Assembly: GCA_964403835.1 (NCBI GenBank)
Contig: CAYOHR010000004.1
Span: forward strand, 44,553-108,552
Direction: 5' to 3'
From: an uncultured Flavobacteriales bacterium
GTDB lineage: Bacteria; Bacteroidota; Bacteroidia; Flavobacteriales_G; JALEGO01
Length of the DNA: 64,000 nucleotides
Below, one piece after another: positions 12,069 through 43,007 of the stretch (its first letter is position 1; each line of letters opens with the position of its first letter). A program made the position numbers and the translations under genes. The notes below the pieces were generated by a model, which saw only the letters and a program-made list of their open reading frames with translations, did not search any database and was not told the origin of the DNA.

Positions 12069-12073
12069 AAAAA

Positions 12074-21125: not shown

Positions 21126-24100
21126 TTATTGAGCAACCAATTTTACTTGCGAAAGAACTTCTTTAGTTGAAGTATTAATCAGCTTTCCAATATAAGTTCC
21201 TGCACTTAAGCGATCATTCATATTTACTCTATTACTTAATACAGGGTATGACTGAATAGAACGTCCTTGTAAATCATACACTACAAAAGAAATGGTTTCA
21301 AAATTTGTTAAATTTTTGAACTCAACAAAGGTATTTTTTACAAATGGATTTGGATAGGCCACCATATAAATATTGGACTGCAAATCAGATTTTATCTGTG
21401 TTGTTAAACTATCCTCTACAAACACAACTAAGGTGTCTGATTTAACGCAGCCATGATCGTTAGATACATTCACCAAATAATAATTGTACCCTCCATTAAC
21501 CACCGTAGCTATTGGATTTGCAATAGTATCGTTATTCAATGTAGCTCCTGTCCAAGCATAGTGATATGTTCCTGAAGGCGTAACCGAAGTTGTAAATTGA
21601 ACTTGATCATTTAATAAAACAGTATCTTCTGCTTGAGTAACACTCAAAGTAAACCCGGGAACAACATGAACTGTAAAGGAAGATGTTCCTTGGCAATTAC
21701 CAATAACATCTGTTGTTGTTAAAGTGTAAGTAACGTCTGAAGATGGCCAAACATAAGTGCTAGCTCCATGTGGGTCAGATAAGTTTGTTGTAGGATTCCA
21801 TTGATATAAAATATTGCTATCTACACAATGCATGGTGTAATTCCATATACTCTGACCATTTAGAGGGTCAGGACCATCATTATACAAAATGTTTCCAGAA
21901 TATCCCGAAATAGAGAAACTCTCTTCGCTAGGGTAGGCTCCGCTAGTGTAAGATAAAGAAACCTGATCTCCATCATTTAAATAAACATATTCGGCACTTT
22001 GGAATCCGTTAGGCAATGTGAATGTATTGTGTAACACTCCATTTACAAATATTTCGAGCGAAGCTCCATTCCATCCATCACCATAGCTATCATACAGATC
22101 TATCGCTAATTGGCAAGAATTGAAAAAGTCAGTAGCTTGTAATAAAGCACTATCTCCTGAACATAATATAGAGTCTCCTGTAATAATATAATTTCTAGCA
22201 TGGCCATTAGATACCATCACTTTTAAGCTAGTGTCTGTTTTAGTGCAACCCTCGTTAGTTATTTCAAGGGAAATAGTATTTAAACCGGGATGATTAAATA
22301 CACCTACCGGATTAGTGATAGTATCAGCATTAAATAACCCTAAAGAACTCCATTGATAAGAATAAGATCCAGCAGGGCTTACAGACACATTAAATTGAAC
22401 ACTATCATGCAAACAAATGCTGTCATCGCTAGCAGTAATTTGATACGTGAAATTTGAACCTATATGCACTAATATAGTAGTTGAATCAACACAATTTCCC
22501 ACCGTTTCAGTAGCAACAATCGTATATAAGGTGCTTGAAGTTGGAGATACCCAAACACTATCAGAAGTACTAGAACTTAATCCGTTGCTTGGAGTCCATA
22601 AATAACTAATTTGTGAGCTACACATCCATGTATGTTGCCAAACCTGCAATCCATTTAAAGGAGTAGGTCCATCCGAAAATAAGATGCTGCCTTGCGCGTC
22701 TAAAACTTGGTAGCTTTCTTCTGTAGGATACAAGCCACTAGTGAAATCAATACTTACTACATCACCTAAGTTTAAATGAATTGTATCTAGTAATTCAAAA
22801 CCGGTTGCTATAGTGTACGATTGATATAAGGATCCATTAATGTTTAAATTAAGATTAGCACCGTTCCATCCATCACCATAATTATCACTTAATACTAAAA
22901 CCATATAACAACCGATATTGCCATTGTTCACAACTAATAAAGTAGAATCGCCTGTACATATATTAGTATCTCCAACAATAGAAATATCCGGTGAAATATT
23001 ATTAGAAACTAAAACAGAAACACTGTCTTTTTTGTTACAACCCCCTGCGCTTGCAACATCCACATAGAACGTATTTACACCAGATTGAGATAAATAAGCA
23101 ATTGGGTTGTGAGTAATATCATTATTTAATAAAAAGGAAGGGGTCCATTGATATGAATAGCTCCCGGCAGGACTAACCGATACATTTAACTGGTTTTCAC
23201 TATACAAACAAGAACTTAAATCGGCAGCGCTCGCGTTAATGGTGAAATTAGGTACTACTGAAACGTGATACTGAACTGTATCTGCACATCCATTTAAAGA
23301 AGATGCAATGACCGTATATGTTGTGCTTACAGTTGGAGAAACTATTACCGTATCATTTGTAGTGGTATTTAAACCTATAGCAGGAGACCATGCATAAGAT
23401 ACATCTGCTCCGGTTAAAGCGATATTCACATTGTCAATCGCCCAGTTATCAAATCCAATACCCGAAAAAAGTGGTTGTGACCATCTAAATCTGGTAGAAG
23501 TAGTTTGGGCAGCCAAGGGAATGTTTTCTGAAATGGGAGTAAAATTAGGATAATTTGCAACTGCATACTGATTAATATTAAACCAATTGACACCGCCATC
23601 ATAAGAATATTGAAGAATAACATCTTCACCTACTTCTGCTGCGTCGCAGGAATCATTTCCTTGTGCTATATATAAAGAAAAATTAATAGTTCCACCTAAT
23701 GATGCATTTAAATCAATGGTTTCAGCAAGTCGGCTAAAATCATCATTAAAATATAAAGCATTACCCGAAACCGAACCACAAGTAGAAGCCGTAATTCCTG
23801 TGGTAGAATACCAATTGGAAAGATGAATGGGATCAAACTGATCAACCAATTGAGCATTACCATATTGTGAATTCACCACAATCATTGAACTGTCACCTTG
23901 ACAAAGTGTACTATCCCCATGAAAAGTTAAAAGTGGGATTGAATTAGTCGAAACAGTTACAACAACACTATCATTTTTGCTACAACCATTGTGACTGGTT
24001 ATATTAAAATACAGGGGCGTTGTTCCTGAACTTGTAAAGGTAGCCCTCGGGTGAAATGAAGCGTGATTATCTATCAGTGCGTTTCCTGTCCAATCAATAG

Positions 24101-25643
24101 TGTAACTTCCTGAAGGATTGGGTGTAACATTAAAAACTACATCATCATTTAAGCAAATAGATGCATTGCTTGGTTGAACTGCATATGTAAAGTCAGCTAC
24201 TACAACAACTTGAACAGTATCTACGTTAGCACATCCACCTTGTAAATTGCTTGTTACTACATAAGTGGTTGTTGCAGAAGGGGTTGCAATTGGGTCGGCG
24301 CATGTGTCACAAGAAAAATTAGTGCCTATCACGATGGGTGAACCGGATATAGATTGCCATGTAAATACAGTACCTCCCGCAGCATGCAAATGAGCTTCGC
24401 TCGAGCTGCCTGAAGTTCCACAGATAAAACGATCAGGACCGGCATTCGTAGATTTTACAATTTGAATGTGATAAACAAATGTATTGGATCCTGAAATAGG
24501 ACATACATTATCAGAAACCAGAACACTAAAAGAAGCATTGTTTGTATGGGATTGTGCTGGTAATTGAATGTTGTATTGAACAGTTAATGGATTTACACCA
24601 GTAATGTTAAAGGAAGATCCTGGAAAAACCTGTGCTAGATTAGTCATGATGCTTAAGCTATCTAGGCTATTAGCATCAACATACGTACTATTAAAAGAAA
24701 TCATTGAGCCTTCACATGCTTCTATTGTGTTATTATTAATTAATATAGCATTACTTACATTTTGAATAACTCCTGAGCTTGCCGAAGGATTTGAGTTAGA
24801 ACAATTTACCGCATAAATTTCTATATCTCGCATCACGGTTCCGATCAAGTTTCCTTGATGATCATATTCTGTAACCTGGTAAACTAAAACATAATTACCA
24901 ATAGTATTAGCAGTAAAGCTAATGTTCCCATTCGCATGATCAATGGTTATTCCGTCGATAGGATTAACACATGAATAAGGAGAAACATAAGTTATTGGAT
25001 TTCCCCATTCATCGCGGGCACAAATCAATTCATAATACAAAGAATCTCCATCCGCTTCTGATACACCGCCGTTGATGGTTATATTCTGACCAATGCACGC
25101 ATAAGGAATAGGAGGTGAATTAAATATGGGTGAGTTATTACATGTTTGTATAGAATTATTTAAAAAGGCATCAACAAGTAATCCCCAGTTTGCGCCATCT
25201 ATGTTTACTGAAGTATTTCTGGCGTAAGTAGTTAGGCTTATATACCAATCAGAACAAGGAGTTAAATTTACCTGAGCTTGATAAATAGACTCGATAAGGC
25301 CGGGTTGAGTTCCACCGTTACAAATCGAATTGTTTATTTCAGAAGCACATAGAGGTGCTACTTCTTTTGCATGAAAAAAAGAAAGAGGAACATGTAAAGT
25401 TCCGCATGAGCTAATTATATCTACTAATTGTTCGGTTGAATCGATATAGGAACTGACCGAACAATCTTGAAAAATTTTTAATTGTATAGTATAGTTGTTC
25501 CCGCCTGTGCAGATATACGTAATTTCGCCGCCAGCATAATGGCTAGCATTCATCTTGGTAATAAATACCAAAGAGAATAGAAAGGAAAAAAGGAAAAATG
25601 ATTTTTTCATAGTAGATCTAAAAATGTTTGTGCAAATGTACAA
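21126..25643 (-). CDS. Large T9SS cargo (type A CTD) with Ig/PKD-like repeats, a reelin-subrepeat-like domain and two DxYGDGWNG modules
   Basis: N-terminal ASHYAGGEITY, repeated GSY.Y.W....L modules, SYDGGVNW Asp-box, C-terminal YPNPF..VYDLQGR..G.Y. Confidence 0.85.
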   Translation of the reverse strand: MYICTNIFRSTMKKSFFLFSFLFSLVFITKMNASHYAGGEITYICTGGNNYTIQLKIFQDCSVSSYIDSTEQLVDIISSCGTLHVPLSFFHAKEVAPLCASEINNSICNGGTQPGLIESIYQAQVNLTPCSDWYISLTTYARNTSVNIDGANWGLLVDAFLNNSIQTCNNSPIFNSPPIPYACIGQNITINGGVSEADGDSLYYELICARDEWGNPITYVSPYSCVNPIDGITIDHANGNISFTANTIGNYVLVYQVTEYDHQGNLIGTVMRDIEIYAVNCSNSNPSASSGVIQNVSNAILINNNTIEACEGSMISFNSTYVDANSLDSLSIMTNLAQVFPGSSFNITGVNPLTVQYNIQLPAQSHTNNASFSVLVSDNVCPISGSNTFVYHIQIVKSTNAGPDRFICGTSGSSSEAHLHAAGGTVFTWQSISGSPIVIGTNFSCDTCADPIATPSATTTYVVTSNLQGGCANVDTVQVVVVADFTYAVQPSNASICLNDDVVFNVTPNPSGSYTIDWTGNALIDNHASFHPRATFTSSGTTPLYFNITSHNGCSKNDSVVVTVSTNSIPLLTFHGDSTLCQGDSSMIVVNSQYGNAQLVDQFDPIHLSNWYSTTGITASTCGSVSGNALYFNDDFSRLAETIDLNASLGGTINFSLYIAQGNDSCDAAEVGEDVILQYSYDGGVNWFNINQYAVANYPNFTPISENIPLAAQTTSTRFRWSQPLFSGIGFDNWAIDNVNIALTGADVSYAWSPAIGLNTTTNDTVIVSPTVSTTYTVIASSLNGCADTVQYHVSVVPNFTINASAADLSSCLYSENQLNVSVSPAGSYSYQWTPSFLLNNDITHNPIAYLSQSGVNTFYVDVASAGGCNKKDSVSVLVSNNISPDISIVGDTNICTGDSTLLVVNNGNIGCYMVLVLSDNYGDGWNGANLNLNINGSLYQSYTIATGFELLDTIHLNLGDVVSIDFTSGLYPTEESYQVLDAQGSILFSDGPTPLNGLQVWQHTWMCSSQISYLWTPSNGLSSSTSDSVWVSPTSSTLYTIVATETVGNCVDSTTILVHIGSNFTYQITASDDSICLHDSVQFNVSVSPAGSYSYQWSSLGLFNADTITNPVGVFNHPGLNTISLEITNEGCTKTDTSLKVMVSNGHARNYIITGDSILCSGDSALLQATDFFNSCQLAIDLYDSYGDGWNGASLEIFVNGVLHNTFTLPNGFQSAEYVYLNDGDQVSLSYTSGAYPSEESFSISGYSGNILYNDGPDPLNGQSIWNYTMHCVDSNILYQWNPTTNLSDPHGASTYVWPSSDVTYTLTTTDVIGNCQGTSSFTVHVVPGFTLSVTQAEDTVLLNDQVQFTTSVTPSGTYHYAWTGATLNNDTIANPIATVVNGGYNYYLVNVSNDHGCVKSDTLVVFVEDSLTTQIKSDLQSNIYMVAYPNPFVKNTFVEFKNLTNFETISFVVYDLQGRSIQSYPVLSNRVNMNDRLSAGTYIGKLINTSTKEVLSQVKLVAQ

Positions 25644-29013: not shown

Positions 29014-30231
29014 ATGAAAAAAGTATTGGTTTTTATTGCTATTGCAATCTATTCTTTCTCTTCTTATTCTCAATATGACTGCAGTTATGGCCGTTTTGTA
29101 ACCCGAAATTTTTTCACTACCGATGTGGTTACTACAAACATTTTGTATGGATCAAATGTGATTGTAGGTGGAGTTAATCAGCAACAATTAAAATTAGATT
29201 TTTTTGAACCCAGCAATGATACTTTAAGCACACGTCCTTTAATTATTTTGGCTTTTCCGGGGTCTTTTGTTTCTGGGTCACGCACAGATATGCATCCGAT
29301 TTGTCATGAATATACTAAAATGGGCTATACTTGCGCAACCATTGATTATAGAACAGGCTTTTTTTTACCGGATTCTGTAAATACGGCAAAAGCAGTGGTT
29401 CGGGCAATGCATGATATGAGAGCTGCGGTTCGTTTTTTCTACAAACAGGCTCAAAATGGAAATCCATATAAAATTGATACTAATAAAATTATTGTAGGTG
29501 GAATATCTGCCGGAGCTATAACTGCTTTACACGTGGCGTTTTTAGATCAGTCATATGAAACAGTACCGGCTATTAATTTAAATAATTTAGGCGGAATAGA
29601 AGGAATTAGCGGAAATCAGGGATATTCATCTCGGGTACACGCAGTTATAAATTTAAGTGGAGCAATAGGCGATACCAGCTGGATTGAACCCCAGGATTAT
29701 AAACCTGTTTTTAGTGTACACGATATTGGAGATGATGTAGTTCCTTATGGAACGGAGGAAGTTTATTTTGGAGGGACTATTCCAACAGGACTTACTGCCA
29801 GCGGAAGTCATGATATAAATGAGCGATTGCTTGATATATCAGCGCCTACCCAATTATTATCGATTAATTCAAACACACATATTTCTTACCAAAACAATGT
29901 TCCCATGTTTGATTCAATCTTTAATTTGAGTATGAATTTTTTGGCAACGTATGTTATTTGTAATAATATTACCGCAATTTCTTCTCAAGAAATAAAGGAA
30001 GAAAAAGTGGTCATGTATCCTAATCCTAGCTCTGGTAATATTTCTATTACCAGTAAGGATAAAATAAAGAAAATTGAGCTTTATTCCCTGAACGGAAAAA
30101 AGGTATTGGAAAAAACTTTTGCGTTCAATCAAATGAATATTTCTCATTTGCCAGAAGGCGTTTACTTCAATAAAGTTTATTTTGAAAACGGATCTTCAAA
30201 AACCTTCAAAATACAGAAGTTAAACAACTAA
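29014..30231 (+). CDS. Secreted alpha/beta-hydrolase (esterase) with T9SS type A CTD
   Basis: PGSFVSG oxyanion region, IDYR, GISAG nucleophile elbow, NLSGA, GSH; C-terminal YPNPS..LYSLNG..GVY. Confidence 0.87.
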   Translation: MKKVLVFIAIAIYSFSSYSQYDCSYGRFVTRNFFTTDVVTTNILYGSNVIVGGVNQQQLKLDFFEPSNDTLSTRPLIILAFPGSFVSGSRTDMHPICHEYTKMGYTCATIDYRTGFFLPDSVNTAKAVVRAMHDMRAAVRFFYKQAQNGNPYKIDTNKIIVGGISAGAITALHVAFLDQSYETVPAINLNNLGGIEGISGNQGYSSRVHAVINLSGAIGDTSWIEPQDYKPVFSVHDIGDDVVPYGTEEVYFGGTIPTGLTASGSHDINERLLDISAPTQLLSINSNTHISYQNNVPMFDSIFNLSMNFLATYVICNNITAISSQEIKEEKVVMYPNPSSGNISITSKDKIKKIELYSLNGKKVLEKTFAFNQMNISHLPEGVYFNKVYFENGSSKTFKIQKLNN

Positions 30232-30319: not shown

Positions 30320-30660
30320 GAAAATTAGTAGTTACTTCACCCAATGGATGTTCTTCAGAGGTATTAAAATGGGTGAATTTTGAAGAAATCTTTCATGTGT
30401 TTATTTCCGGCTCTTTTACTCCGAATGGAGATGGATTAAACGATGTGTTTTTTCCAAAGGGAGTGGGAATTAATCCAAAGGAGGAGTATGAATTTAGAAT
30501 TTTTGATCGGGATGGAGAAAAAATATTTGAAAGCTTTGATTTGGAGAATGGGTGGGATGGAAGATACAAGAACACAAGTACAATTGTTTTGAAGGGAAAT
30601 TATGTTTAGGAATTATCATATATAGACATTCATAATAAATTTCATTCGTAAATAGAGCAA
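30320..30660 (+). pseudogene. Remnant of a PKD + T9SS type B CTD gene
   Basis: Frame reads KLVVTSPNGCSSEVLKWVNFEE..FTPNGDGLNDVF..IFDRDG..GWDG..GNYV*ELSYIDIHNKFHS*. It has an upstream in-frame stop, a stop at the usual Trp position, and no start or signal peptide. Confidence 0.75.
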
Positions 30661-31248: not shown

Positions 31249-34200
31249 ATGAATAAATATTTCCTTACTCTATCAAGCTTATTTTTAATATCTATAAAAA
31301 TATTTTCTGCTTCTTTTACAGCTACACAATCAGGCAATTGGAACATTGGAACAACTTGGGGGGGCTTATGTGCTGCGGGTTGTACAGCAGGAGTTGATTT
31401 TCCCGGAACCGGAGATGATGTTATCATTGACGCCTTTGATATTAGTGTAACGGCCGATGCAACTTGCCTAACTATCACTGTAAATCCCGATAATACAAGC
31501 TTAAGTATAAATTCTACGTTTTTGCTTACAGTAGAAGATTTTATTGAAATTTATTCTGCAGCTGACGCCAGTGCATTTGACTTTAATATAGATGGTTACC
31601 TTTATGTAGAAAATTATATCCTGATGGACGTTGGTAACAGTGGAACGTATAATATGAATATTAATTCAGGAGGTAAACTAAATATTAATTCAGCCACTGG
31701 TACCAGTCTTTTTAAATCAAGAAAGTCAGGCGGCGGGGCTATTATTAATATCAATGTCAATGATACCTTTATTACGAATGGAAATTTAACTTTACAAGGA
31801 CAAACGCATACCGATGATTCGGTAAATATGTTTGTGAATGCGCGCACAGAAATTTTGGGTACAACAGGGCTAAAGTTGACTTCAACGAGTGCAAATGCAG
31901 ATGTTCTTTTGGAGTTAAATGACACCTTAGTTTGTTTCGGAGCCTTAACATTAAATACTTCTTCTAACCAAAATGATGTAAGGCTAGATATGACAAATAC
32001 AAATAATGCATTTCTTGATTTGCAAGGTCAATTATCTATCACAAACCAAGGTGGTTTAATTGATGCTAGTGCTGCAACAAATACCTTTTTTCGTTTTTCC
32101 GGGTCAGCTGGTCAAAATGTAAAAATGGGATCGGGGTATGAATATGATAATTTGATTATTGCCAATACGAGCGTTTCAGGCGCTGCTTTAACAAGTGGAG
32201 TTACTACTTCGGGGGTATTAGGAAATATTACCATTGAAAATAACTCTAAGCTGGTTGCCGGCTCTAATGATATTACTTTTGGAGGAGATTTAACCATTAA
32301 TGGTAATGGAACCATTACACAAACAAGCACAAACAAAATAAGTTTTGCAGGTTCTGCTCAGCAAACTATATACGGAACCTTTGTGTTTCCGGGAATTGCA
32401 GAAGTTGATAATTCATCCATGAATGGACTTACTTTAGATGGCTCTTCTGCCGTAACTTTTAATGACTTGAATATTTTAGCTGCCCGAAAATTTAATAGTG
32501 CAGGTGCTAATTATATAATCAAAGAAGATATAACAAATAATGGAGGAACATATACCGCAAATGTAGGTGATACCACTACTTTTAGTGGAACCAGTCTTCA
32601 GACCGTAACAGGTACTATCCCTTTTGATCATACCATTATTGCCAATTCATCAGGTGTAAATTTAGCCACAGGAGGTGATGCTATTTCTTTTAATAATTTA
32701 ACAATTAATAGTGGTTGTTTTTTAGACCCAGATGCGAATGATTTTTCCGTAAGAGGAAATTGGATCAATAATAATGCAGAAGCAGGTTTTACCCCTGATG
32801 CAGGTTGTCGAGTTCGATTTAATGGAAGTACAGCACAAACTATTACTGGTTCGGACACTACTGATTTTCAAGATATTAGTGTTGAAAATACTTCAACTGG
32901 ACTTACCGCAACAAACCCCATAGATATTATTGGAGTTTTAGATGTACAAGATGGCGCTTTTAATGGGAATTCTGTTGCACGCTTGGTATCCAATTCTTCG
33001 GCTACCGCAGTTATAGCAGATTTATCGGATGGTACCCCGGATAACCCTGCGGTTACTAACATCATTGTAGAAAGATATATGAATGAGCATGCTGGCTCTC
33101 CAGGATGGAACTTTGTTGCATCCCCTTTAACCAATACAGTATTAGATGATTGGGATGATGATTTGTATACTACCGGAAATGTTGGTAGCGATGATCCTCA
33201 ATGGTTTTTTTCAATACAAGGATGGGACGAAGCGGCATGTGCGTCTACTACTCCTGATTTAACTACACAAAATACAAATAATGGATCAGATCAATCAGGT
33301 TGGTTCATTTATGAAAATAGCGGGGTGACAATAGATGCCACAGGAAGTATTAATCAGGGTATTGTAAGTATAGCCGGATTAACATGTGGAGTAGGTTGTG
33401 CTTTTGGAGATGGATGGCATGTTTTAGGAAATCCGTATGCTGCGCATGTGACTTGGGATAATGTAACATTGACCAATATAAGTGGTGCAGGCGGAGGATC
33501 TGCCTATGTTTTACAAAATGACAATAGTGGAAATTTTATAGAATATGACCACAGCACTCCAACAGACATCTTAGCGTCTGGCGAAGGTTTTTATGTGCAG
33601 GTTGCTGCTGGTATGGTAGGAGAAGTACGATTTGACGAAAATGATAAAACCAATTCAAATACTCCGGATAATTTTAACAGTGTAAAACTGGTAGGAAACA
33701 TAGAGCCGGTCTTAAAAATTAATATGTTGGCTGATGGTACGCGTTCTGATTTTACCAAAATTGGTTTGCGAGATAACGCTGCTAAAGGATATGAGTGGTT
33801 TAACGAAACAACTAAAATGGGCAATGCAAATAACCTGTTAAACATAGCAACCGTTGTGGATGATATCAAAGTTTCAAGAAATTCTATTCCTTCGGATGTT
33901 GATAGTATCGTTATTCCTATTGTTTTATACAGACAAAATAATGCTTTAAGTACTACTAATCAATATGATTTGACTTTTAATGATGTAGATGCTTTTTTAG
34001 ATCAAAATAAATGTATGACCTTGATTGATTCAACTGATTTAAGCTCAACAATTATTGATACCGAAGGTCAAACGCATTCAACCACCATGATGGATGATGG
34101 TGTGGCTCGATTATTCTTACATGTTAGCTCACCTTTAACTATTTCTTCAACCAATCCTACCTGTTTTGATTTGCCAAACGCAACTGCACGGGTAACAGGC

Positions 34201-35565
34201 AAAGGAAACGGACCTTTTAACTATACTTGGCAAAATGCAAACGGAAATACTGTTCGAACTACAACAGGTGTTTTCGGAGCTGATTCATTAAGTAATGTTA
34301 CGGAGGGTATTTATACTGTAATTGTAACAAACAATGAAGGTTGTGGAACAGTACGTGCTAAAATTGAGCTAATGGCGCCTGTTTCGCCGAACTATACTAC
34401 TTTAACTTCTGAAGATGTTACTTGTCATGGAGGAAATGATGGAACAGCCTCTGCCCATATTTTTACTGGAAATGCAGGTCGAACATTTTTATGGTCAAAT
34501 GGAAATAGCGATTCGCTAGCAACAAATTTATCGGCAGGAACGTATACAGTTTCTATAACCGATAGTACTGGTTGTTCATTCAGCAAGAGTATTATGATTA
34601 ATGATGCAATATCAAATATTACCCAAAAATCTAAAGCAGATATTACCTGTTTTGGAAGCACCAATGGAGGTATTTTGCTTCAAATGAATGGAGACCTAAG
34701 TAATTATACTTTTGGATGGTCAAATGGAGTTACTACGCATGATGTATATGGTTTAAGCGCCGGAACTTATTATGTTACGGTTTCTCATTCGAATGGTTGT
34801 GTTGAGACAGATTCAGTTACCATAGATCAACCTGAAGAAATTAACAGCAATGCAGTTATACAAAATGCAAGTTGTTTTGGTTTAATGGATGGTACTATTA
34901 CCTTAAATACAACAGGTGGTGTTGCTCCTTATGATATTAATTTGGCGGGATATAACACCAGCTTTTTAGATTCGTTAACTCCTGGTAGTTATACTTTATT
35001 TATCATGGACCAAAATCAATGCCAAAAAAGCCTTGTATTAAATGTGACCGAGCCTCCTTTAGTGGATGCCGCTTTTAGCACTGCTAATGATACTTTTTAT
35101 GTAAATGAACCGGTTATTTTTACAAATACTTCTGCCGGAGCTACCCAATCCGATTGGAATTTTGGTGATGCAAGCACTTCATCTATTACAGATCCAATTC
35201 ACACGTATTTAGCTTCAGGAACCTATTCAGTTCGTTTATTGTCTTCTCAAAATGGGCAATGTGCCGATTCTACCGATCAAATGCTTTATATATTGGATGA
35301 ATTAGTTTCAGTGAATGCTAATGGCGATAAAGATTTTATAAAAATTACCAGAACAGATAATACTTTGATTATTAATACTTCATTTAATAAACCTGAATTT
35401 TTGAAAATTAAAGTTTATAATGCATTAGGACAAGATTTAGTAAGAAGCACCGAAGAAACCGTTTCTATATCTACGATTAAAATAGCCTTGCCAGATACAA
35501 AAGGCATGTATATTTTATCAATTTATAAAAATGATGAGATAATAACGAAGCAAGTAATCAGATAA
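31249..35565 (+). CDS. Large T9SS cargo (type A CTD): G8-like N-terminus, beta-helical repeats, SprB repeats, PKD domain
   Basis: TATQSGNWNIGTTW..PGTGDDVII; repeated F.GSA.QTI.G; VERYM..WNFVASP; GWHVLGNPY; DVTCHGGNDG..YTVSITD.GC; FTNTSAGA..DWNFGD; VYNALGQ..GMY. Confidence 0.85.
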   Translation: MNKYFLTLSSLFLISIKIFSASFTATQSGNWNIGTTWGGLCAAGCTAGVDFPGTGDDVIIDAFDISVTADATCLTITVNPDNTSLSINSTFLLTVEDFIEIYSAADASAFDFNIDGYLYVENYILMDVGNSGTYNMNINSGGKLNINSATGTSLFKSRKSGGGAIININVNDTFITNGNLTLQGQTHTDDSVNMFVNARTEILGTTGLKLTSTSANADVLLELNDTLVCFGALTLNTSSNQNDVRLDMTNTNNAFLDLQGQLSITNQGGLIDASAATNTFFRFSGSAGQNVKMGSGYEYDNLIIANTSVSGAALTSGVTTSGVLGNITIENNSKLVAGSNDITFGGDLTINGNGTITQTSTNKISFAGSAQQTIYGTFVFPGIAEVDNSSMNGLTLDGSSAVTFNDLNILAARKFNSAGANYIIKEDITNNGGTYTANVGDTTTFSGTSLQTVTGTIPFDHTIIANSSGVNLATGGDAISFNNLTINSGCFLDPDANDFSVRGNWINNNAEAGFTPDAGCRVRFNGSTAQTITGSDTTDFQDISVENTSTGLTATNPIDIIGVLDVQDGAFNGNSVARLVSNSSATAVIADLSDGTPDNPAVTNIIVERYMNEHAGSPGWNFVASPLTNTVLDDWDDDLYTTGNVGSDDPQWFFSIQGWDEAACASTTPDLTTQNTNNGSDQSGWFIYENSGVTIDATGSINQGIVSIAGLTCGVGCAFGDGWHVLGNPYAAHVTWDNVTLTNISGAGGGSAYVLQNDNSGNFIEYDHSTPTDILASGEGFYVQVAAGMVGEVRFDENDKTNSNTPDNFNSVKLVGNIEPVLKINMLADGTRSDFTKIGLRDNAAKGYEWFNETTKMGNANNLLNIATVVDDIKVSRNSIPSDVDSIVIPIVLYRQNNALSTTNQYDLTFNDVDAFLDQNKCMTLIDSTDLSSTIIDTEGQTHSTTMMDDGVARLFLHVSSPLTISSTNPTCFDLPNATARVTGKGNGPFNYTWQNANGNTVRTTTGVFGADSLSNVTEGIYTVIVTNNEGCGTVRAKIELMAPVSPNYTTLTSEDVTCHGGNDGTASAHIFTGNAGRTFLWSNGNSDSLATNLSAGTYTVSITDSTGCSFSKSIMINDAISNITQKSKADITCFGSTNGGILLQMNGDLSNYTFGWSNGVTTHDVYGLSAGTYYVTVSHSNGCVETDSVTIDQPEEINSNAVIQNASCFGLMDGTITLNTTGGVAPYDINLAGYNTSFLDSLTPGSYTLFIMDQNQCQKSLVLNVTEPPLVDAAFSTANDTFYVNEPVIFTNTSAGATQSDWNFGDASTSSITDPIHTYLASGTYSVRLLSSQNGQCADSTDQMLYILDELVSVNANGDKDFIKITRTDNTLIINTSFNKPEFLKIKVYNALGQDLVRSTEETVSISTIKIALPDTKGMYILSIYKNDEIITKQVIR

Positions 35566-35597
35566 TTTATAAATTTGTATTGTAAAAACACAAGAAA

Positions 35598-35813
35598 TTG
35601 AAAAAAATCCTAGTTATATCATTTGTCTTTTTAGGGATTAACTTATTACAAGCAGCTCCACCACCACCACCTGCTGGTGGCGGTGATCCTGCATGTTGGC
35701 CTCCTCCGTGCGTGCCTATTGATGGTGGTGTTGTATTTTTGCTTGCAGCAGGCATTGGGTTAGGAGCAAAAAAATCGATCTCTCTTCTTAAAAAAGAAAA
35801 GACTACCGCTTAG
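35598..35813 (+). CDS. PID-CTERM sorting-signal protein with a very short Pro/Cys-rich mature region
   Basis: TTG start, signal peptide, APPPPPAGGGDPACWPPPC, VPIDGG motif (35712-35729), TM segment, basic tail; immediately upstream of an exosortase. Confidence 0.85.
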   Translation: MKKILVISFVFLGINLLQAAPPPPPAGGGDPACWPPPCVPIDGGVVFLLAAGIGLGAKKSISLLKKEKTTA

Positions 35814-35819
35814 TCTTTT

Positions 35820-36365
35820 ATGAGCACTTCGGTATTTAAGCAGCCTATTTTCCTTTTTTTTATAAAATTTTTCCTTTTATACTTTTCTTGGTATTTTATT
35901 TATAAATATTGGATTCATCCTGGGCATAATATTGATTTATGGATTGCCAATAACCTGGTTGATGGAGTTAAAGTTATTTTAAAAGCATTTCATTATCCAT
36001 TAATTAATTTTAGCCAATACGATCGAGAGTATAGAGCGGTTGGTATTGATGGAAGCAATGGAGTTTATATTGGCGATAGCTGCAATGGATTAACCTTATT
36101 TAGCATTTATGTGTTTTTTTTAATATCCTTCCCCGGAAGAGTATTATCAAAAATTTATTTTTCTGTTATTGGAGTAGTGGTTATTCATATTTGTAACATT
36201 CTACGAATATTCGCCCTTTGCCTAGTGGCATTACATTATCCGCAATACCTCGATTTTAATCATACCTATACTTTTACTATTATTATGTATGCCATTATAT
36301 TTTTAATGTGGTATATCTGGTTAAATAAATTTTCAAAATCCAAAAAAACAGTCCTTGAAAAATAA
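35820..36365 (+). CDS. Exosortase-family protein (XrtF/XrtX-like)
   Basis: IGDSCNGL (Cys), NILRI (Arg), FNHTYTF (His) in a polytopic membrane protein. Confidence 0.88.
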   Translation: MSTSVFKQPIFLFFIKFFLLYFSWYFIYKYWIHPGHNIDLWIANNLVDGVKVILKAFHYPLINFSQYDREYRAVGIDGSNGVYIGDSCNGLTLFSIYVFFLISFPGRVLSKIYFSVIGVVVIHICNILRIFALCLVALHYPQYLDFNHTYTFTIIMYAIIFLMWYIWLNKFSKSKKTVLEK

Positions 36366-36834
36366 AAATTTGCTCTTATTCAAGCTAAGTATTTTGGTTA
36401 TCCTTTTTGTTTTGGTTGGATTTTTACGTGAACATATTTTTGTTCAAATTAATTACAGATTGGGCTATTTGAGGACTCTTGATCCTTCGTATGACCCCTA
36501 TATGACCCTGCCATTTATCAGGGATTTATCTTTTTCTACCTTATACTATGGCAAGTTTGTACTTACCCTTCTATTTTCTTTAATATACATGCTTTTAGGG
36601 TATACTTTAATAAATATGTTATTTCATAACAGTGTATTCAACAAATACACCATTGCTCTTTTTCTACTTGTAATTTTTATATCGTTTATTTTGTATTTAA
36701 CAGGGTATTTATACAACGATATTTATTCTTCGTATGAGATAGCTAGGTATTTAGCAGGATTGGTTCAGTCTCCTATTATTCCAATGGTTTTGGTTTTGGT
36801 TTTTAAATTCGGAAAGACAGAAGTTGAATCTTGA
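36355..36834 (+). CDS. Exosortase-associated membrane protein
   Basis: TTG start overlapping the exosortase stop, four TM segments, LREHIF N-terminal motif, LVQSPI near the C-terminus. Confidence 0.7.
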   Translation: MKNKNLLLFKLSILVILFVLVGFLREHIFVQINYRLGYLRTLDPSYDPYMTLPFIRDLSFSTLYYGKFVLTLLFSLIYMLLGYTLINMLFHNSVFNKYTIALFLLVIFISFILYLTGYLYNDIYSSYEIARYLAGLVQSPIIPMVLVLVFKFGKTEVES

Positions 36835-37646
36835 TTTAAGAAAATAGTATAGGAAGCAATGCAAAATATGGCAAAATCAGCCACGCCAGCCATCCACAAA
36901 ATAAATACATGGAAAACAATACCAAGGACTAAAAGCCCCTTTTTTACCTTCTTAAACCATACTAAAAAGGGAAAAACCGCTTGGTAGCCCAATGCAAAAT
37001 AATTGGCTATTACGGCAATCCATTGTATTTTAAATATATACGAGAAAAAAGGGGTTGAATAGCCTTCGGTTTTCGCTAATAAGTATAAGGCGTTCCCTTG
37101 TATCCATTCGGTACCCTGCAACTTATACCAGGCTGAAAAAAAGTACATCAGCGCGATTTGAATTTGGCAAGCATATACACTTATATTGCTTAACATATTA
37201 AACAGCTTATTCTTATGCTGTTTGCTTTCAGATAAAAAGACATTAAAAAACAAGAGCATATTTAATAAATGATGCCCTCCGTTTGTTATTTCAGGGGCCT
37301 TAAAACAAAGGGTTTTAAAAATAAAATAAACCCCAAGGGCTGCTATTTTGGGGTATTTTCCAAATAAACCTAATAAAAGAAGGAGGATGTATATCCAAAT
37401 TACAACCAAATAGAAATTTGCAAAAGGAGGAATGGTTAATAACGTAAAAAAGCCGCTTATAAAACCCGTTGGAACCTGTACTAAATGGGTTAGCGCATCG
37501 GGTGCGTAAAAAGTCGACCAGTGATTGATAGTGGTTAAAATATCAAATAACAAAGCGAAATAAATACATCGTCGGAACCATTGTATAGCAAATACAAAGT
37601 GATTTTCTTGTAATAGACAGGTCGGTATTTTTAATAATTTATTCAA
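36765..37646 (-). CDS. HTTM-domain membrane protein (SdpB-like)
   Basis: NGGHHL, QIALMYFFSAWYKL...W..GNAL, LGIVFHVFI, F....IASY motifs. Confidence 0.8.
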   Translation of the reverse strand: MNKLLKIPTCLLQENHFVFAIQWFRRCIYFALLFDILTTINHWSTFYAPDALTHLVQVPTGFISGFFTLLTIPPFANFYLVVIWIYILLLLLGLFGKYPKIAALGVYFIFKTLCFKAPEITNGGHHLLNMLLFFNVFLSESKQHKNKLFNMLSNISVYACQIQIALMYFFSAWYKLQGTEWIQGNALYLLAKTEGYSTPFFSYIFKIQWIAVIANYFALGYQAVFPFLVWFKKVKKGLLVLGIVFHVFILWMAGVADFAIFCIASYTIFLNQDSTSVFPNLKTKTKTIGIIGD

Positions 37647-38205
37647 AAGAAGGTCTTATTGGTTCAATAGGCATAAATAAAGTGTCATTTTTGCAATTGC
37701 GAGCAGCATTCAGGCAAACACACGTAAAAGCTACTTGTATGGCAGAGGGATGCACGTTTTGCGAATCTATCTTTTTTTTAGCTTCTGTGAGCGCTCCATA
37801 ATAAGATTTGGTTCTTCTTAAACGGGCATAATCAATGGTTTTTCCCATGGTTTCCTGCATCGAAATTAAATTACGGGCATAATACTCATGCATGCGCAAC
37901 ATTTTTCCGTGCCAGCTAATTCGGTATGTATGATGTTTTTTGATGAAATCTTCACTTAAATAATTCCATGTACTTGTTTCATTTTCAATATGATATCTAT
38001 ATAAAACTTTGAGTTCGCAGGGTGGAGGATCGGGGGCAAATAGTTTCCAGTTTTGATGAAAAAGCGGAAGCATATACTTAGCTGTTACCTTATTTATCGG
38101 AGCCGATGTATATTTTCCATCCGTTGCATAAATAAGGGTAAATAAAAAATGAACGAAAAATATGAAAATTAAAATCCAGGTTAAATAAATTTGGTATTTT
38201 TTCAT
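37639..38205 (-). CDS. DUF5819/SdpA-like protein
   Basis: N-terminal TM followed by YMLPLFHQNWKLFAPDPP; 8-nt overlap with the HTTM gene. Confidence 0.75.
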   Translation of the reverse strand: MKKYQIYLTWILIFIFFVHFLFTLIYATDGKYTSAPINKVTAKYMLPLFHQNWKLFAPDPPPCELKVLYRYHIENETSTWNYLSEDFIKKHHTYRISWHGKMLRMHEYYARNLISMQETMGKTIDYARLRRTKSYYGALTEAKKKIDSQNVHPSAIQVAFTCVCLNAARNCKNDTLFMPIEPIRPSFE

Positions 38206-38264: not shown

Positions 38265-39737
38265 ATGCAGGTTTTTGCTATTATGAGAAAGAACTTTTTT
38301 TACTTTTTAACAATATTGCTGGTTAATGCAGTCATTATGTCGCTTGAGTTAGTTGGGCCACGTATTATTGCACCCTTTTTTGGGAGCACGGCCATTGTAT
38401 GGACCGGTATTATTTCAACCATTTTAGTATCTCTATGCATAGGGTATTATGTAGGTGCCTATGTAGTTCGGAAATACCCAAATATTGAAATAAGCCTTTC
38501 TTATACTATTCTTTTAGGGGCTTTTTTTATTCTTTTAACCCATTATTTAAGCCCTAAAATTCTAATTCACATATCGTCTTATCCTATTTCTTTATTAGCT
38601 AAATCATTTTTGGCAAGTATTTTCATTTTTAGTCTGCCAACCAGTACACTTTCCATTATTCCAATTTTAATTAGTAAGGCAATATTGGTGGGACCATCTG
38701 AAAAAATGCCCCAAAGGGTGAGTATTTTATTTAGTTTAGGTACATTAGGGGCTTTGCTTGGTGTTTGTGTGACCACCTTTATTTTAATACCCACTTTTGG
38801 AAGCAGTAAAATATTTTATTTGCTATCTATCTTATTGATTATCAATAGTTTTTGTTTTAATGCATCTCTTTATAAATTTTTTATAGCTGTTTTGCTGCTT
38901 GTTTCAAGTGTATTGTTTTATTCGAAAAGTTCTTTTGGGAATAATACTATTGAAGTTGATTCTTTATATAACCATATTTTTATTTACAATACATTAAATT
39001 TTTCCAATCAAGAACCTATAAAAGTGCTTCAGTTAAATGAACATATCAATTCTGCCATTTATACAAAATACCCCGATAGTTTGGTTTTTCCGTACCTTGA
39101 AAAAACCTATCAAATTATAAAAAATAAAAAACCTTTAAAAGATATACTCATGGTGGGTGGGGGAGCGTATACTTTGCCCAATAAGGTTTTGGAAACGTTG
39201 TTAAATGTAGACATAGATGTGGTAGAAATAGACCCCATATTGCATGAAATGGCAGTAAAATATTTTACTCTCAACCAAAGCTCCAGGCTGCACATATATG
39301 ATGAAGATGGACGTACCTTTTTTAAGAAAAGAAAAAAGCAGTATGATGTTGTTTTTTTAGATGTATTATCTTCTTTATCCAATGTACCCGATCACCTAAC
39401 CACGCAAGAAGCTTTTTCAGAAATTAAATCGATTTTAAAAGAAGATGGGGTGGTTGTTTTTGCTATGATGGGGGCTTTGGAGGGCAAGTATTCTCATTTT
39501 CCGAAAGATGAATATAAAACGCTTGCATTTGTTTTTCCACATGTACAATGGGTGTCCGTTTCAAGTACTAAAAAGGATGTTTTGCAAAATATTTTACTGG
39601 TAGCAAGCAATAGCAGTATTGATAATTTGCTTGGAGATACCAATAAATTAGATATTTTTAATTTAAATCAATTAAATCGAAATATAATTTTGAAAGATGA
39701 TTTTTCTTGCTACTCTTACCTGAATAGTTTTAAATAA
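38265..39737 (+). CDS. Fused membrane/spermidine-synthase-like SAM-dependent methyltransferase
   Basis: N-terminal TMs (MSLELVGPRIIAPFFGST, GTLGALLG) followed by LMVGGGAY, VEIDP, DGRTF, YDVVFLD. Confidence 0.85.
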   Translation: MQVFAIMRKNFFYFLTILLVNAVIMSLELVGPRIIAPFFGSTAIVWTGIISTILVSLCIGYYVGAYVVRKYPNIEISLSYTILLGAFFILLTHYLSPKILIHISSYPISLLAKSFLASIFIFSLPTSTLSIIPILISKAILVGPSEKMPQRVSILFSLGTLGALLGVCVTTFILIPTFGSSKIFYLLSILLIINSFCFNASLYKFFIAVLLLVSSVLFYSKSSFGNNTIEVDSLYNHIFIYNTLNFSNQEPIKVLQLNEHINSAIYTKYPDSLVFPYLEKTYQIIKNKKPLKDILMVGGGAYTLPNKVLETLLNVDIDVVEIDPILHEMAVKYFTLNQSSRLHIYDEDGRTFFKKRKKQYDVVFLDVLSSLSNVPDHLTTQEAFSEIKSILKEDGVVVFAMMGALEGKYSHFPKDEYKTLAFVFPHVQWVSVSSTKKDVLQNILLVASNSSIDNLLGDTNKLDIFNLNQLNRNIILKDDFSCYSYLNSFK

Positions 39738-39793: not shown

Positions 39794-40327
39794 ATGATAT
39801 GTTTGTTGGTAATTAAAGTGAATATGAAGAAAATTTTTGCACTATTTATTTTCCTTTTTGGATACATAGGATTATTCTCTCAGAAGATAACTCCTTTTGT
39901 TATTGCTAGTGGGGGGCATCATTATAAAGGGGCACAGTATAATGTTTCTTGGACCGTTGGAGAGATTTTTACACCAACCATTCATAATGATCAAAATTAT
40001 ATCACACAGGGATTTCAGCAACCTACAGGTAATGCCTATATTTCGGTGCCTGAAGTGTTTGAAAAACTAAACAACTTTAGTTTTTATCCCAATCCTTTCA
40101 GTGATCATTTAAACGTTCGCGTAAATAATGCAGAACCTCATAATTATGAGGTTTATGTATTTAATATTAGTGGGCAATTAGTTGAAAAGCCTTTGGTTAT
40201 CAATTCATTCTCTGATTCGCAAGTATATTCCTTTAAAACAACCTCTCTTAAAACAGGGGTATATCTTATTAAAATTATTGAAATAGGTACGAATAATACG
40301 GCCGATTTTAAATTAACTAAAATATAA
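39794..40327 (+). CDS. Small T9SS type A CTD protein (probable start 39822)
   Basis: SQKITPFVIASGG..SWTVGE..TQGFQQP followed by YPNPF..FNISGQ..GVY. Confidence 0.8.
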   Translation: MICLLVIKVNMKKIFALFIFLFGYIGLFSQKITPFVIASGGHHYKGAQYNVSWTVGEIFTPTIHNDQNYITQGFQQPTGNAYISVPEVFEKLNNFSFYPNPFSDHLNVRVNNAEPHNYEVYVFNISGQLVEKPLVINSFSDSQVYSFKTTSLKTGVYLIKIIEIGTNNTADFKLTKI

Positions 40328-40329: not shown

Positions 40330-41601
40330 ATGAGGATATTTTACCTTTTTACACTCTTTTATTTATTTTTTATCGGTCTCGCTCAGACTCAAATTCTTGT
40401 AAGCATACAAGCAGATACAGCTTGTCCCGGAGCGCTTACAAATCTTATGTCTACTTCTACCACAACCAATGGAAATATTATTGATTATGCTTGGGATTTA
40501 GATCATGACGGACAATTTGACGATGAAATAAACCCCACTATTTTGCATAATTTTAATAGTGCTGTTGATGTAACTATTGGGTTAAAGGTTACCACGGATG
40601 TTCCACAGTCCGATTCGGCATATTTTACCATTCATTTTAGAAATAAGCCTGTTGCTAGTTTTAATATACAAAACATTTGTTTAGGGAATATTTCTCAGTT
40701 TAATAATCTTTCTACCATAGAAGGAAGTGATGTGCTAGATTATTTTTGGGACTTTGGAGATGGGAATACTTCTACCCTTAAATTTCCTTCTAATACGTAT
40801 GCAACTATTGGAAATTACTCCCCCTCTTTAATTGTTCGAAGTCAGCATAATTGCCAAGACACCTTAGTGAAAAATATTACAATCCGCGAATTACCAGAAG
40901 TAAAAATACATGTGGTGGGCGATTTAATCATTTGTGACAATAATGTAACAACCTTAGAGGCTCAAACCAATGTAAGTTATTTTTGGTCAACAGGAGAGAA
41001 CTCAAACAGCATTATTATTTCTACTCCCGGCACGTATTATTTGGTAGGAACAGACTCTTTATCCTGTGTTAATCGGGATAGTGTTCAAATTACACTTTCT
41101 CAAAATCCGGCTTTAACTGTTTCTAAGGATACCTTTATTGTGCGGGGTGAAAATGCACAGATTTCAGTAAATGGAGCCGATTCTTATGTTTGGAGTCCTT
41201 CTGAAGGTCTTTCTTCTACAACAAGCGATAACATATTAGCTTCTCCTCAAAATACAACAACGTATGAAGTAACGGGGCAAAATTTATTTGGATGCAGCTC
41301 AACAAAATCAGTCACCATAGAGGTATTAGATAGTTATTATATAGATTATACCAATTCAATCACACCCAATGGAGATGGCTTGAATGATTTTTTTATTATT
41401 CGAAATAAATTTATGTTTAAAGAGTGTCCGTTAACCATTTACAATCAAGCTGGGGATGAGGTATACTCTAATAATAATTACAACAACGAATGGAATGGGA
41501 CTTTTAGTGGAAAAGCATTACCACCCGACACTTACTATTTTACCATTAAGTGTGAAAAAGAAGAAAATTCATTTACCGGAGCTATAACTCTTATTCGATG
41601 A
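40330..41601 (+). CDS. PKD-domain T9SS cargo with type B CTD
   Basis: YAWDLD, YFWDFGDG (PKD); TPNGDGLNDFF..IYNQAG..WNG..TYYF..GAITLIR. Confidence 0.87.
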   Translation: MRIFYLFTLFYLFFIGLAQTQILVSIQADTACPGALTNLMSTSTTTNGNIIDYAWDLDHDGQFDDEINPTILHNFNSAVDVTIGLKVTTDVPQSDSAYFTIHFRNKPVASFNIQNICLGNISQFNNLSTIEGSDVLDYFWDFGDGNTSTLKFPSNTYATIGNYSPSLIVRSQHNCQDTLVKNITIRELPEVKIHVVGDLIICDNNVTTLEAQTNVSYFWSTGENSNSIIISTPGTYYLVGTDSLSCVNRDSVQITLSQNPALTVSKDTFIVRGENAQISVNGADSYVWSPSEGLSSTTSDNILASPQNTTTYEVTGQNLFGCSSTKSVTIEVLDSYYIDYTNSITPNGDGLNDFFIIRNKFMFKECPLTIYNQAGDEVYSNNNYNNEWNGTFSGKALPPDTYYFTIKCEKEENSFTGAITLIR

Positions 41602-43007
41602 GCATTTGCGGAGAGAAAATATTATTTTTTTTCTTACTCTTTTTTGGGGTAAAGGCTTTGTATGCACAACAAAATGGCTTATCTAATCAATATTTATTAA
41701 ATGGCTATTATTTTAATCCGGCTTTTGCAGGAAAATCAAATGAAATAAACGGTCTTTTAGGATATAGAAAACAATGGGTGGGTTTTAAAGGAGCCCCCAC
41801 AACTAAATATTTTTCAATTAATAGCAGTGTGAAAGAAAACATGGGAATAGGTGCTGCAGCAAATATTGAAGAATTTAACATTATTGAAAAATTTAGTGCC
41901 CGAATTTCGTATGCTTATAAAGCAAAACTATCTGATAATCATTTAATTGCATTTGGTTTAGACGGGACGTATCAAGAAAATAGGTTAAAAGCTGCCGATA
42001 TTGATGTAGATTTTGGAAATGACCCGCTTTTATTGAGCAGTACTTTTTATAGAGGTTCCACTTTTGACGCCAATTTTGGTATTCGGTATCAATTTAAAAA
42101 GTTTGAACTGGGTATGGCCGGCATAAATATATTTCAACAAAAAAGTGTATTGAAGTCAGAAAATAACAATAATCAAAGTCAATATTTAAACATACGGCAC
42201 TATAATATATCTGCCTCTTATGAATTGAATGTATTAGAAAATGCTTTACAATTGACCCCTTTTGTATTTGGCCGATATGCGGAAAAAACTCCATTTTCGA
42301 TAGATGGAGGAGTAAAAGCAGCATGGAAAAATGCAGTTTGGTTAGCCATGGCTTATCGCACCAATCATACCTTAATAGGGAGTTTGGGGGTAAACATTGC
42401 TGATTATGTTCAAATAGGATATTCTTACGATGCTGGTTTTGGAACAGATATTTCTACCTTTTATAAAAACACACATGAAGTGTATGTTGGGTTTAAAATA
42501 GGGTATAAGTCTGAAACAAAGAGCGCTGCTGATTTTAAGCAAACCTTGGCCTTAGAAATGAGGGCAGATAGTTTAGCCAATGAATTAAATAAAAAGGACC
42601 TGGAAGTGAAGCAAATGAATGAGAATTTGGCCAATAAAGAATTGGAATATAAAAACAAGCTTAAATCCATCGAGGACGAAAGGAAAGATGATGTTTTAAT
42701 AAATAGCGAATCAAAAGATCAAGTAAATGACACTACTAAAGAAATAGGTGCTGACTTTGTCACCATGGATCAATTACACAAAGGGCATTACATTGTTGTT
42801 AAATCCTTTTTAAATAAGGAATTTGCCCTAAATGCCATGACTGAAATAAAAACAAAAGGATACCAACCTTTATTAGTTTATAATAAAAGTAGGGGATATT
42901 ATTATGTTTATATAGAAAAATTAGATAATTTGCAGTCGGCTTTAAAAGAATTAGAAAATATTAAAAATGCAGGCTTTAAAGATGCCTGGCTCTATTTGCA
43001 CCAATAA
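41598..43007 (+). CDS. PorP/SprF-family T9SS membrane protein fused to a coiled coil and C-terminal SPOR-like domain
   Basis: QYLLNGYYFNPAFAG, YRKQWVGFKGAP, IGYSYD, THEV; then an ELNKKDLE coil and YIVVKSF...YYYVY...GFKDAW. Confidence 0.85.
   Translation: MSICGEKILFFFLLFFGVKALYAQQNGLSNQYLLNGYYFNPAFAGKSNEINGLLGYRKQWVGFKGAPTTKYFSINSSVKENMGIGAAANIEEFNIIEKFSARISYAYKAKLSDNHLIAFGLDGTYQENRLKAADIDVDFGNDPLLLSSTFYRGSTFDANFGIRYQFKKFELGMAGINIFQQKSVLKSENNNNQSQYLNIRHYNISASYELNVLENALQLTPFVFGRYAEKTPFSIDGGVKAAWKNAVWLAMAYRTNHTLIGSLGVNIADYVQIGYSYDAGFGTDISTFYKNTHEVYVGFKIGYKSETKSAADFKQTLALEMRADSLANELNKKDLEVKQMNENLANKELEYKNKLKSIEDERKDDVLINSESKDQVNDTTKEIGADFVTMDQLHKGHYIVVKSFLNKEFALNAMTEIKTKGYQPLLVYNKSRGYYYVYIEKLDNLQSALKELENIKNAGFKDAWLYLHQ

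Follow-up and report, generated by a model that had tools for sequence, protein, structure and literature searches.

A two-cysteine PID-CTERM mini-protein encoded beside exosortase X in an uncultured Flavobacteriales bacterium and its Bacteroidota relatives

The stretch of an uncultured Flavobacteriales genome analysed here (64 kb in all, hereafter the window) carries at 35598-36834 a compact cassette of three forward-strand genes, which encode a PID-CTERM mini-protein precursor, an exosortase and a small membrane protein. The precursor gene (35598..35813, +) has a TTG start, specifies 71 amino acids and matches the NCBIfam model NF046080 with 38.7 bits (cutoff 26, E 6e-10). It is followed by the gene for exosortase X (XrtX; 35820..36365, +), a polytopic protein of 181 amino acids that scores 169.3 bits against NF046081 (cutoff 170), and by that for an XrtX-associated membrane protein of 159 amino acids, again with a TTG start (36355..36834, +), which was assigned through NF046082 (45 bits, cutoff 75) and BLAST. 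Directly upstream lies the gene for a type IX secretion system (T9SS) type A cargo of 1438 amino acids (31249..35565, +) with a C-terminal domain (CTD), SprB repeats and a PKD domain. The spacing is tight, 32 nt separating the cargo gene from the peptide gene and 6 nt the peptide gene from xrtX, which shares 11 nt with the accessory gene; an earlier note on this DNA had described just such close packing of an exosortase and accessory protein behind the cargo. Since the three genes match NF046080, NF046081 and NF046082, they are an exosortase X/PID-CTERM system already catalogued in NCBIfam, and the host locus is a typical copy of this Bacteroidota sorting family, with which it shares its models, gene order, catalytic triad and Bacteroidota relatives and from which it differs in nothing essential. 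What is new here is the adjacency of the mini-protein gene, the uniform size of its product, its cysteine pattern, its ratio of non-synonymous to synonymous polymorphism (pN/pS), the -7 promoter box, and the linkage of the cassette to a cargo family and to Wzc-type genes.

The precursor reads MKKILVISFVFLGINLLQA / APPPPPAGGGDPACWPPPC VPID / GGVVFLLAAGIGLGAKKSISLLKKEKTTA. As judged by eye, its first 19 residues (MKKILVISFVFLGINLLQA; 35598..35654, +) form a signal peptide with a basic n-region (MKK), a hydrophobic core and the small-x-small motif LQA, after which signal peptidase I is predicted to cut, and the homologues are laid out alike. At the C-terminal end, residues 39-71 (35712..35810, +) make up a sorting signal with the tripartite layout of a VPIDGG motif, a transmembrane segment and a Lys-rich tail; NF046080 matches residues 39-59 of this signal, after which the sequence continues as KKSISLLKKEKTTA. 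Cleavage by signal peptidase after LQA and by the exosortase at the PID motif would leave a mature part about 23 residues long (predicted at both ends as residues 20-42, APPPPPAGGGDPACWPPPCVPID; 35655..35723, +), which would include the Cys-bracketed loop CWPPPC (residues 33-38; 35694..35711, +). Signal peptide, Pro/Cys stretch, VPIDGG, transmembrane segment and basic tail are all present where the earlier note had placed them.

Relatives were sought in GTDB, with each species represented by one genome, and 277 XrtX relatives came to light; the best 80 loci were examined over about 14.5 kb each, all of them from uncultured Bacteroidota. This analysis revealed that a peptide gene of the same design adjoins xrtX in 74 of the 80 species-level loci, mostly 3-90 nt upstream, occasionally up to 360 nt away and, in one locus, inverted nearby. 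No PID-type tail was found on a large open reading frame (ORF) within 7 kb of xrtX at any locus (about 1.1 Mb of flanking sequence), and no second PID-type tail was found in the window. That the mini-protein is the visible substrate of the exosortase, as proposed from the window alone, holds for the family as a whole. A dedicated sorting system, in the usage of Haft, is one in which an enzyme and its single target are regularly encoded consecutively (bioRxiv 10.1101/2023.06.07.544157), and enzyme and target genes are consecutive in these 74 loci; over the sequence covered, 64 kb in the window and about 14.5 kb per relative, the XrtX cassette is putatively a dedicated system in that sense.

Small size is likewise a property of the family. 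A profile search of 5.8 billion proteins with the peptide returned 1248 matches, the best 120 of which are 68-103 residues long, and HMMER, run exhaustively over 1.84 billion representatives, returned 2784 matches at E <= 1e-3 (184 at E <= 1e-10), the best 150 of which measure 53-130 residues. All database homologues carry the tag PF28310 in precomputed Pfam annotation, and some NCBI records are titled "PID-CTERM protein-sorting domain-containing protein"; a local Pfam scan left both the peptide and the accessory protein without a match, PF28310 being seen in the precomputed annotations only.

Within the peptides, strong conservation is limited to the Cys loop, the P-x-D-G-G motif, the transmembrane segment and the KK tail, and the mature peptide begins with a stalk that is variable and of low complexity; family-wide, the 22 residues ahead of P-x-D are 34% Pro and 22% Gly. 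Two cysteines occur in 71 of 72 peptides, where they bracket a Pro-rich loop of 3-6 residues with one aromatic or aliphatic residue. The commonest forms of this loop are CWPPPC (38 peptides), CGGPFPPC (13) and CIPPPC (7), alongside rarer variants. The second Cys is invariant, 1-2 residues ahead of the P in P-x-D, as are P40 and D42 across the peptide alignment. Conservation of the cysteines, which the earlier note had proposed to check, was borne out for the pair, the exact CWPPPC being one form among several. The family's target, a mini-protein of 70 residues in nearly all the relatives examined, should give a mature peptide that is proline-rich, with two cysteines and some 20-30 residues.

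Two departures from the common design were also noted. One locus (L076:3353-3517) has a peptide variant without any Cys (…GPPPPPPPPIPVPVDGG…) next to an XrtX of 160 bits, so the Cys loop is not absolutely required. In addition, one clade of peptides (L028, L054, L065, L069, L070 and similar), found in metagenome-assembled genomes labelled Chitinophaga, Bacteroidetes or Bacteroidia, starts with Gly-Met repeats (GMGMGMG) and has the loop CGGPFPPC; its Met-rich repeats, together with Cys, call Cu(I)-binding motifs to mind.

The peptide gene is real, since it recurs in 74 of the 80 loci and is under purifying selection, with a median pN/pS of 0.13 over 21 pairs and, in one close pair, 19 synonymous changes against 1 non-synonymous change. 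That so small a frame arose by chance in an intergenic region, as its shortness, TTG start, low complexity and a mirror ORF on the opposite strand might suggest, has virtually no likelihood left, being refuted by these conservation and selection data together with the strength of the hidden Markov model (HMM) match and a promoter box at a fixed distance. The mirror ORF (35567-35755, -) is a 62-residue frame that runs antisense to the peptide gene as a mirror of its Pro/Gly codons. Simple gene calling chose mirror ORFs over the peptide gene in several loci, and annotation pipelines might do likewise.

In Bacteroidetes, the -7 promoter box has the consensus TAnnTTTG. A match to it (TAAATTTG; 35570..35577, +) begins 5 nt past the cargo stop, 28 nt before the peptide start. 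Of 70 loci, 44 (63%) have such a box in the 70 nt ahead of the peptide start, as against 3.7% of random windows of that length; the position is -21 to -30 for 33 of the 44 boxes, and the mode is -28. Because the box falls in the gap between cargo and peptide, the peptide gene, xrtX and the partner gene appear, from sequence, to form a transcription unit of their own that would not need co-transcription with the cargo. A terminator scan found none between the cargo and peptide genes, and a sigma-70 scan, whose model does not cover Bacteroidota promoters, gave fewer matches than did shuffled sequences.

Across an aligned set of 30 exosortase sequences, residues C88, N89, R129, N147 and H148 do not vary, so that the intact Cys/Arg/His set reported earlier (C88, R129 and H148) extends to the relatives, and the signature TIGR04178 matches with 45.8 bits against a cutoff of 23. 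Eight related loci score 160-202 bits against NF046081. For the window protein the next-best family is XrtF (77.8 bits, 91 bits lower), and no XrtA model is among the matches at E <= 0.01. BLAST finds the accessory protein homologous (E values down to 5e-23) to the product of the gene that follows xrtX at no fewer than 56 loci.

We next consider what lies around the cassette. CTDs were counted with an NCBIfam scan and a local CTD HMM; that of the window's upstream cargo scores 36.7 bits against TIGR04183 (cutoff 23) and 27.3 against PF18962 (cutoff 27). In 39 of 69 interpretable loci the gene next upstream, co-directional and 0-64 nt away, has a T9SS type A CTD, as against 21 of 623 (3.4%) of the other ORFs of at least 150 amino acids at the same loci, an odds ratio of 37 without phylogenetic correction; 8 of those 21 are a convergent gene right after xrtX. 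The adjacency, which the earlier note had named as a test, is thus conserved, and it covers 21 of 32 XrtX clades, delimited at 70% identity. Furthermore, the upstream neighbours are one homologous family beyond the CTD, the core of the window cargo (residues ~430-930) being common to 36 others, and we rejected the alternative that unrelated T9SS cargos fill this slot. No Pfam model covers that core. Its AlphaFold2 model (residues 420-960, with 4 homologues) was unusable, with a mean pLDDT of 37 and a pTM of 0.34, a PDB sequence search with the cargo matched through the PKD part only, and weak G8-domain matches in two cargo homologues fell below the gathering cutoff and were not used. Another gene occupies the upstream position in 30 of the 69 loci (about 43% without an adjoining cargo), and 34 of 81 loci have no CTD gene within 7 kb. 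Distant homologues of the cargo core, of which a search with a word prefilter gave 4 matches only, two of them with gene context, adjoin glycosyltransferase and acyltransferase genes with no XrtX nearby. Membership of the cargo in the XrtX system is putative and unproven.

The second recurrent neighbour is a Wzc-type co-polymerase/tyrosine kinase (Wzz and GNVR domains with a P-loop). Its linkage is about equal to that of the cargo: of the 54 loci whose upstream sequence extends to 6 kb or more, 33 have it, often together with genes for ABC-2 transporters and NusG/UpxY-like proteins, and 46 have Wzc, the cargo family or both. In 36 loci glyA, a housekeeping gene, comes after the cassette, and inherited gene order alone can therefore produce synteny counts of this kind. 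As a separate observation, the Wzc-like kinases of several loci (L003, L020, L043 and others; for example L054:1638-4013) end in unusually long Gly-Tyr repeats (GYGYGYGYGYG…).

Taken together, the gene identities, architecture, conservation, selection, promoter box and synteny described above lead us to consider it probable that the three genes are a dedicated XrtX/PID-CTERM unit, in which the mini-protein is clipped and its peptide transferred to an acceptor in the envelope. The cleavage sites, the disulfide, the transpeptidation and the nature of the acceptor are what we infer. The 71-residue precursor would be exported by Sec and lose its signal peptide, while its C-terminal transmembrane segment and Lys tail would keep it in the inner membrane, with the Pro/Gly-rich stalk and the Cys-x4-Cys loop facing the periplasm and the Cys pair possibly oxidised. 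Cys88 of XrtX would then attack at or beside the VPID motif, just past the invariant second Cys, and the new C-terminus of the ~23-residue peptide would, by analogy with archaeosortase A and sortases, be passed to an envelope acceptor, with a membrane lipid and a lipid-linked glycan as candidates, the latter supplied by the polysaccharide pathway usually encoded alongside. The small membrane protein would be indispensable as a partner. What results would be a tag of the surface or envelope, short, rigid and rich in proline, with ties to exopolysaccharide and adhesin biology. The Wzc-like genes parallel the known link between exosortases and exopolysaccharide and are therefore counted in favour of this reading; as further precedents for it we take lipid anchoring that depends on archaeosortase A (bioRxiv 10.1101/2023.06.07.544157) and the need for both xrtF and its partner gene in Flavobacterium johnsoniae (PMC10936215).

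Several points weigh against a dedicated clip-and-transfer system. The exosortase falls 0.7 bits under the curated cutoff of its model and the accessory protein 30 bits under that of NF046082. In 6 loci no peptide gene adjoins xrtX, although the XrtX there is bona fide (160-195 bits). No Wzc-type gene lies near the cassette in the window, so that the exopolysaccharide linkage known from XrtA systems is seen in XrtX relatives and not in the window itself. An expression search matched no RNA run and a single DNA run, a sludge metagenome with 6% of the words. PDB sequence searches found no solved structure for any relative, the XrtX profile giving nothing meaningful. Our full-text literature search found no paper mentioning PID-CTERM or XrtX, its matches being unrelated, and no published experiment on either was found. 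To our knowledge transpeptidation by an exosortase has never been demonstrated, even for XrtA.

Comparison with better-known sorting systems places these points in context. Twenty years after exosortases were predicted we know of no attachment partner for them, and their targets are usually large, glycosylated and numerous. The PEP-CTERM/XrtA (EpsH) system resembles that of XrtX in its sorting signal of motif, transmembrane segment and basic tail, in its Cys/Arg/His enzyme and in often lying beside polysaccharide export genes. However, the PEP-CTERM motif is P-E-P, whereas the XrtX target has P-I-D with a preceding invariant Cys; XrtA serves many targets and XrtX putatively just the one adjacent to it; and the targets of XrtA are large Ser/Thr-rich proteins, whereas XrtX, itself a much smaller enzyme (~180 amino acids), is paired with a mini-protein. 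Archaeosortase A (ArtA) of Haloferax volcanii, which acts on PGF-CTERM proteins, belongs to a superfamily homologous to XrtX and is its sole member with biochemical evidence coupling removal of the C-terminal helix to lipid attachment; it differs in being archaeal, in having large S-layer glycoprotein targets and in using a prenyl-derived lipid. We know of no bacterial exosortase for which such lipid attachment has been shown. ArtA-dependent lipid anchoring has been described in Haloferax (bioRxiv 10.1101/2023.06.07.544157).

JDVT-CTERM and MYXO-CTERM proteins share with the XrtX targets an invariant Cys where the sorting signal begins, frequently accompanied by another Cys close by, and JDVT-CTERM, like XrtX, is a dedicated system with one co-operonic target. 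Their enzyme is a CPBP-type myxosortase, a glutamic intramembrane protease, whereas that of the XrtX locus is an exosortase, and no CPBP protein was seen in the conserved XrtX neighbourhood. Moreover, the JDVT/MYXO Cys is thought to be lipidated, whereas the Cys pair of XrtX targets flanks a Pro-rich loop upstream of P-x-D. A further proposed likeness is to the PorU sortase and the linking sugar of anionic lipopolysaccharide (A-LPS), where removal of a C-terminal signal is coupled to transfer to an envelope glycolipid; both systems belong to Bacteroidota, and XrtX genes adjoin T9SS cargo. PorU is nonetheless an unrelated enzyme with an unrelated signal, and it acts at the outer membrane surface.

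The next-best HMM family is XrtF (TIGR04128, with an exosortase F-associated protein; Fjoh_1448/1449), which, like XrtX, combines a small exosortase with a small membrane partner in the same phylum. The two are separate HMM families, and the target of XrtF is not known, whereas that of XrtX is encoded next door. In F. johnsoniae, xrtF and its partner gene are both needed for biofilm formation and surface colonisation (PMC10936215). Deletions of xrtF, fjoh_1449, fjoh_0651, a DegT-type aminotransferase gene, porU and porZ share one phenotype row (PMC10936215 Table 2), from which that of the secretion-null sprA and porV mutants differs (PMC10936215). Within this group, fjoh_0651 is a tiny hypothetical gene that was complemented by a 434-bp fragment including its promoter (PMC10936215), and it is a candidate for the XrtF target. 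An attempt to derive the C-terminus of Fjoh_0651 from published primers was given up, because the primers are mutually ambiguous, and we make no claim about its sequence.

These data bear on the first alternative to clip-and-transfer as such, in which the XrtX-processed, anchored peptide is the acceptor or tether to which PorU/PorZ couples the neighbouring cargo, the peptide thereby playing the role of the Porphyromonas A-LPS linking sugar. We regard this as unlikely. It draws on the adjacency of a single cargo family (odds ratio 37, 21 of 32 clades), on a second cargo convergent after xrtX in 8 loci, and on the F. johnsoniae deletions of xrtF, fjoh_1449, fjoh_0651 and the aminotransferase gene, which mirror the porU/porZ row (PMC10936215). 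Moreover, the acceptor that PorU naturally uses is the amine of a sugar-borne amino acid, and it has been speculated that exosortases conjugate to compounds similar to that acceptor (PMC7468200).

Against it stand the cassette's own promoter box between cargo and peptide, the 30 loci with some other upstream gene and the 34 without a CTD gene within 7 kb, and the cargo homologues found beside glycosyltransferase genes without XrtX. The roughly equal synteny of glyA and Wzc means that the adjacency may in part be inherited gene order, and seven CTD ORFs in its 64 kb make the window itself generally rich in such cargo. By the Q-rule of Bacteroidetes, an N-terminal Gln is usually cyclised to pyroglutamate; about 14 of the 72 peptides probably have Gln at +1 (by a crude cleavage-site heuristic of which only clear cases were used), and these, once cyclised, would offer no amine acceptor. 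No Lys is conserved in the mature part. Finally, a product of the inner membrane would still have to reach the cell surface. The acceptor or tether idea of the earlier note came through both tests named with it, on adjacency and on the cysteines, yet the case for it is circumstantial; the disulfide, the lipid anchor and any contact of the mini-peptide with the cargo are putative.

A related proposal is that XrtX couples the mini-peptide to the lipid-linked glycan of the Wzc pathway, the resulting glycolipid being all or part of the T9SS anchor for the adhesin-like cargo. We hold this to be improbable as it stands. Were it true, XrtX and XrtF exosortases would be the missing anchor-building arm of T9SS attachment outside Porphyromonas, and the XrtF target would be a similarly tiny ORF, with fjoh_0651 as the candidate.

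It is also doubtful that XrtX is a protease only, which frees the ~23-residue, disulfide-looped peptide as a soluble signal or bioactive peptide. The size of the product, its Cys pair and its dedicated processing enzyme do resemble peptide-maturation cassettes, and a pair of genes including an HTTM/SdpB-like one adjoins the cassette in the window and in 13-14 loci. No evidence emerged for the signalling role raised in the earlier note. The conserved neighbourhood has no exporter, receptor or regulator, the variable part of the peptide is low-complexity Pro/Gly with all conserved residues at the cleavage-proximal end, and the exosortase relatives studied so far anchor their products (bioRxiv 10.1101/2023.06.07.544157).

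Finally, the mini-protein could be a cofactor, primer or regulator that occupies XrtX, the physiological targets being encoded elsewhere. The confinement of conservation to the Cys loop and sorting signal, which makes the protein essentially an extended sorting signal, would suit such a role, as would the 6 XrtX loci without an adjoining peptide gene; NF046080, in addition, covers the tail only and no Cys loop, from which we infer that its curators may have seen the tail on other proteins. This reading has little chance of being right, given that no larger PID-tailed protein appeared in the ~1.1 Mb of flanking sequence or among the best-scoring database matches, and that dedicated target systems are marked by just such strict one-to-one adjacency (bioRxiv 10.1101/2023.06.07.544157).

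The mini-protein family could serve as a convenient model for what exosortases attach their substrates to: the peptide is so short that it should be the simplest exosortase substrate available, and a single adjoining substrate with ~20-30 mature residues would suit top-down mass spectrometry and reconstitution. The invariant Cys by the cleavage motif, the cassette's own promoter and the linkage to Wzc and to the cargo family offer experimental handles. By the same token, the target of XrtF, an enzyme needed for Flavobacterium biofilms, may be a tiny ORF overlooked by annotation. Should the T9SS connection prove true, two major surface-protein pathways of Bacteroidota would be joined.

The remaining observations concern neighbouring genes. 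A second T9SS protein, 1300-2300 amino acids long with the N-terminus YYSRxNGNWNTAxTWS, is convergent right after xrtX in L028, L040, L049, L054, L065, L069 and L070 (at ~7500-14500 in each); the accessory gene lies beyond it in L040, L065, L069 and L070, and in L028, L049 and L054 the convergent large gene reaches the end of the locus. In the window, an HTTM/SdpB-like membrane protein (36765-37646, -) and a DUF5819 protein (37639-38205, -) are encoded by paired genes convergent with the accessory gene, the 3' ends overlapping by 70 nt; of 81 loci, 13-14 have this pair next to XrtX. Proteins of the SdpB family are linked to the maturation of a disulfide-containing peptide in Bacillus. After this pair comes a fused MFS/spermidine-synthase-like membrane protein (38265-39737, +; NF037959, 182 bits), in an arrangement that is the same in the closest relative (L001).

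The window is unusually rich in T9SS cargo. Besides the upstream cargo, T9SS genes lie at 14319-16412, 21126-25610, 29014-30231, 30373-30609, 39794-40327, 40330-41601 and 41598-43007, and the six further CTD ORFs are of type A and type B (CHU_C), with a PorP/SprF gene adjoining a type B cargo. One of them (30373-30609, +) is an orphan ORF of 78 amino acids that consists of the CHU_C (type B T9SS) C-terminal domain alone, probably what is left of a truncated cargo gene.

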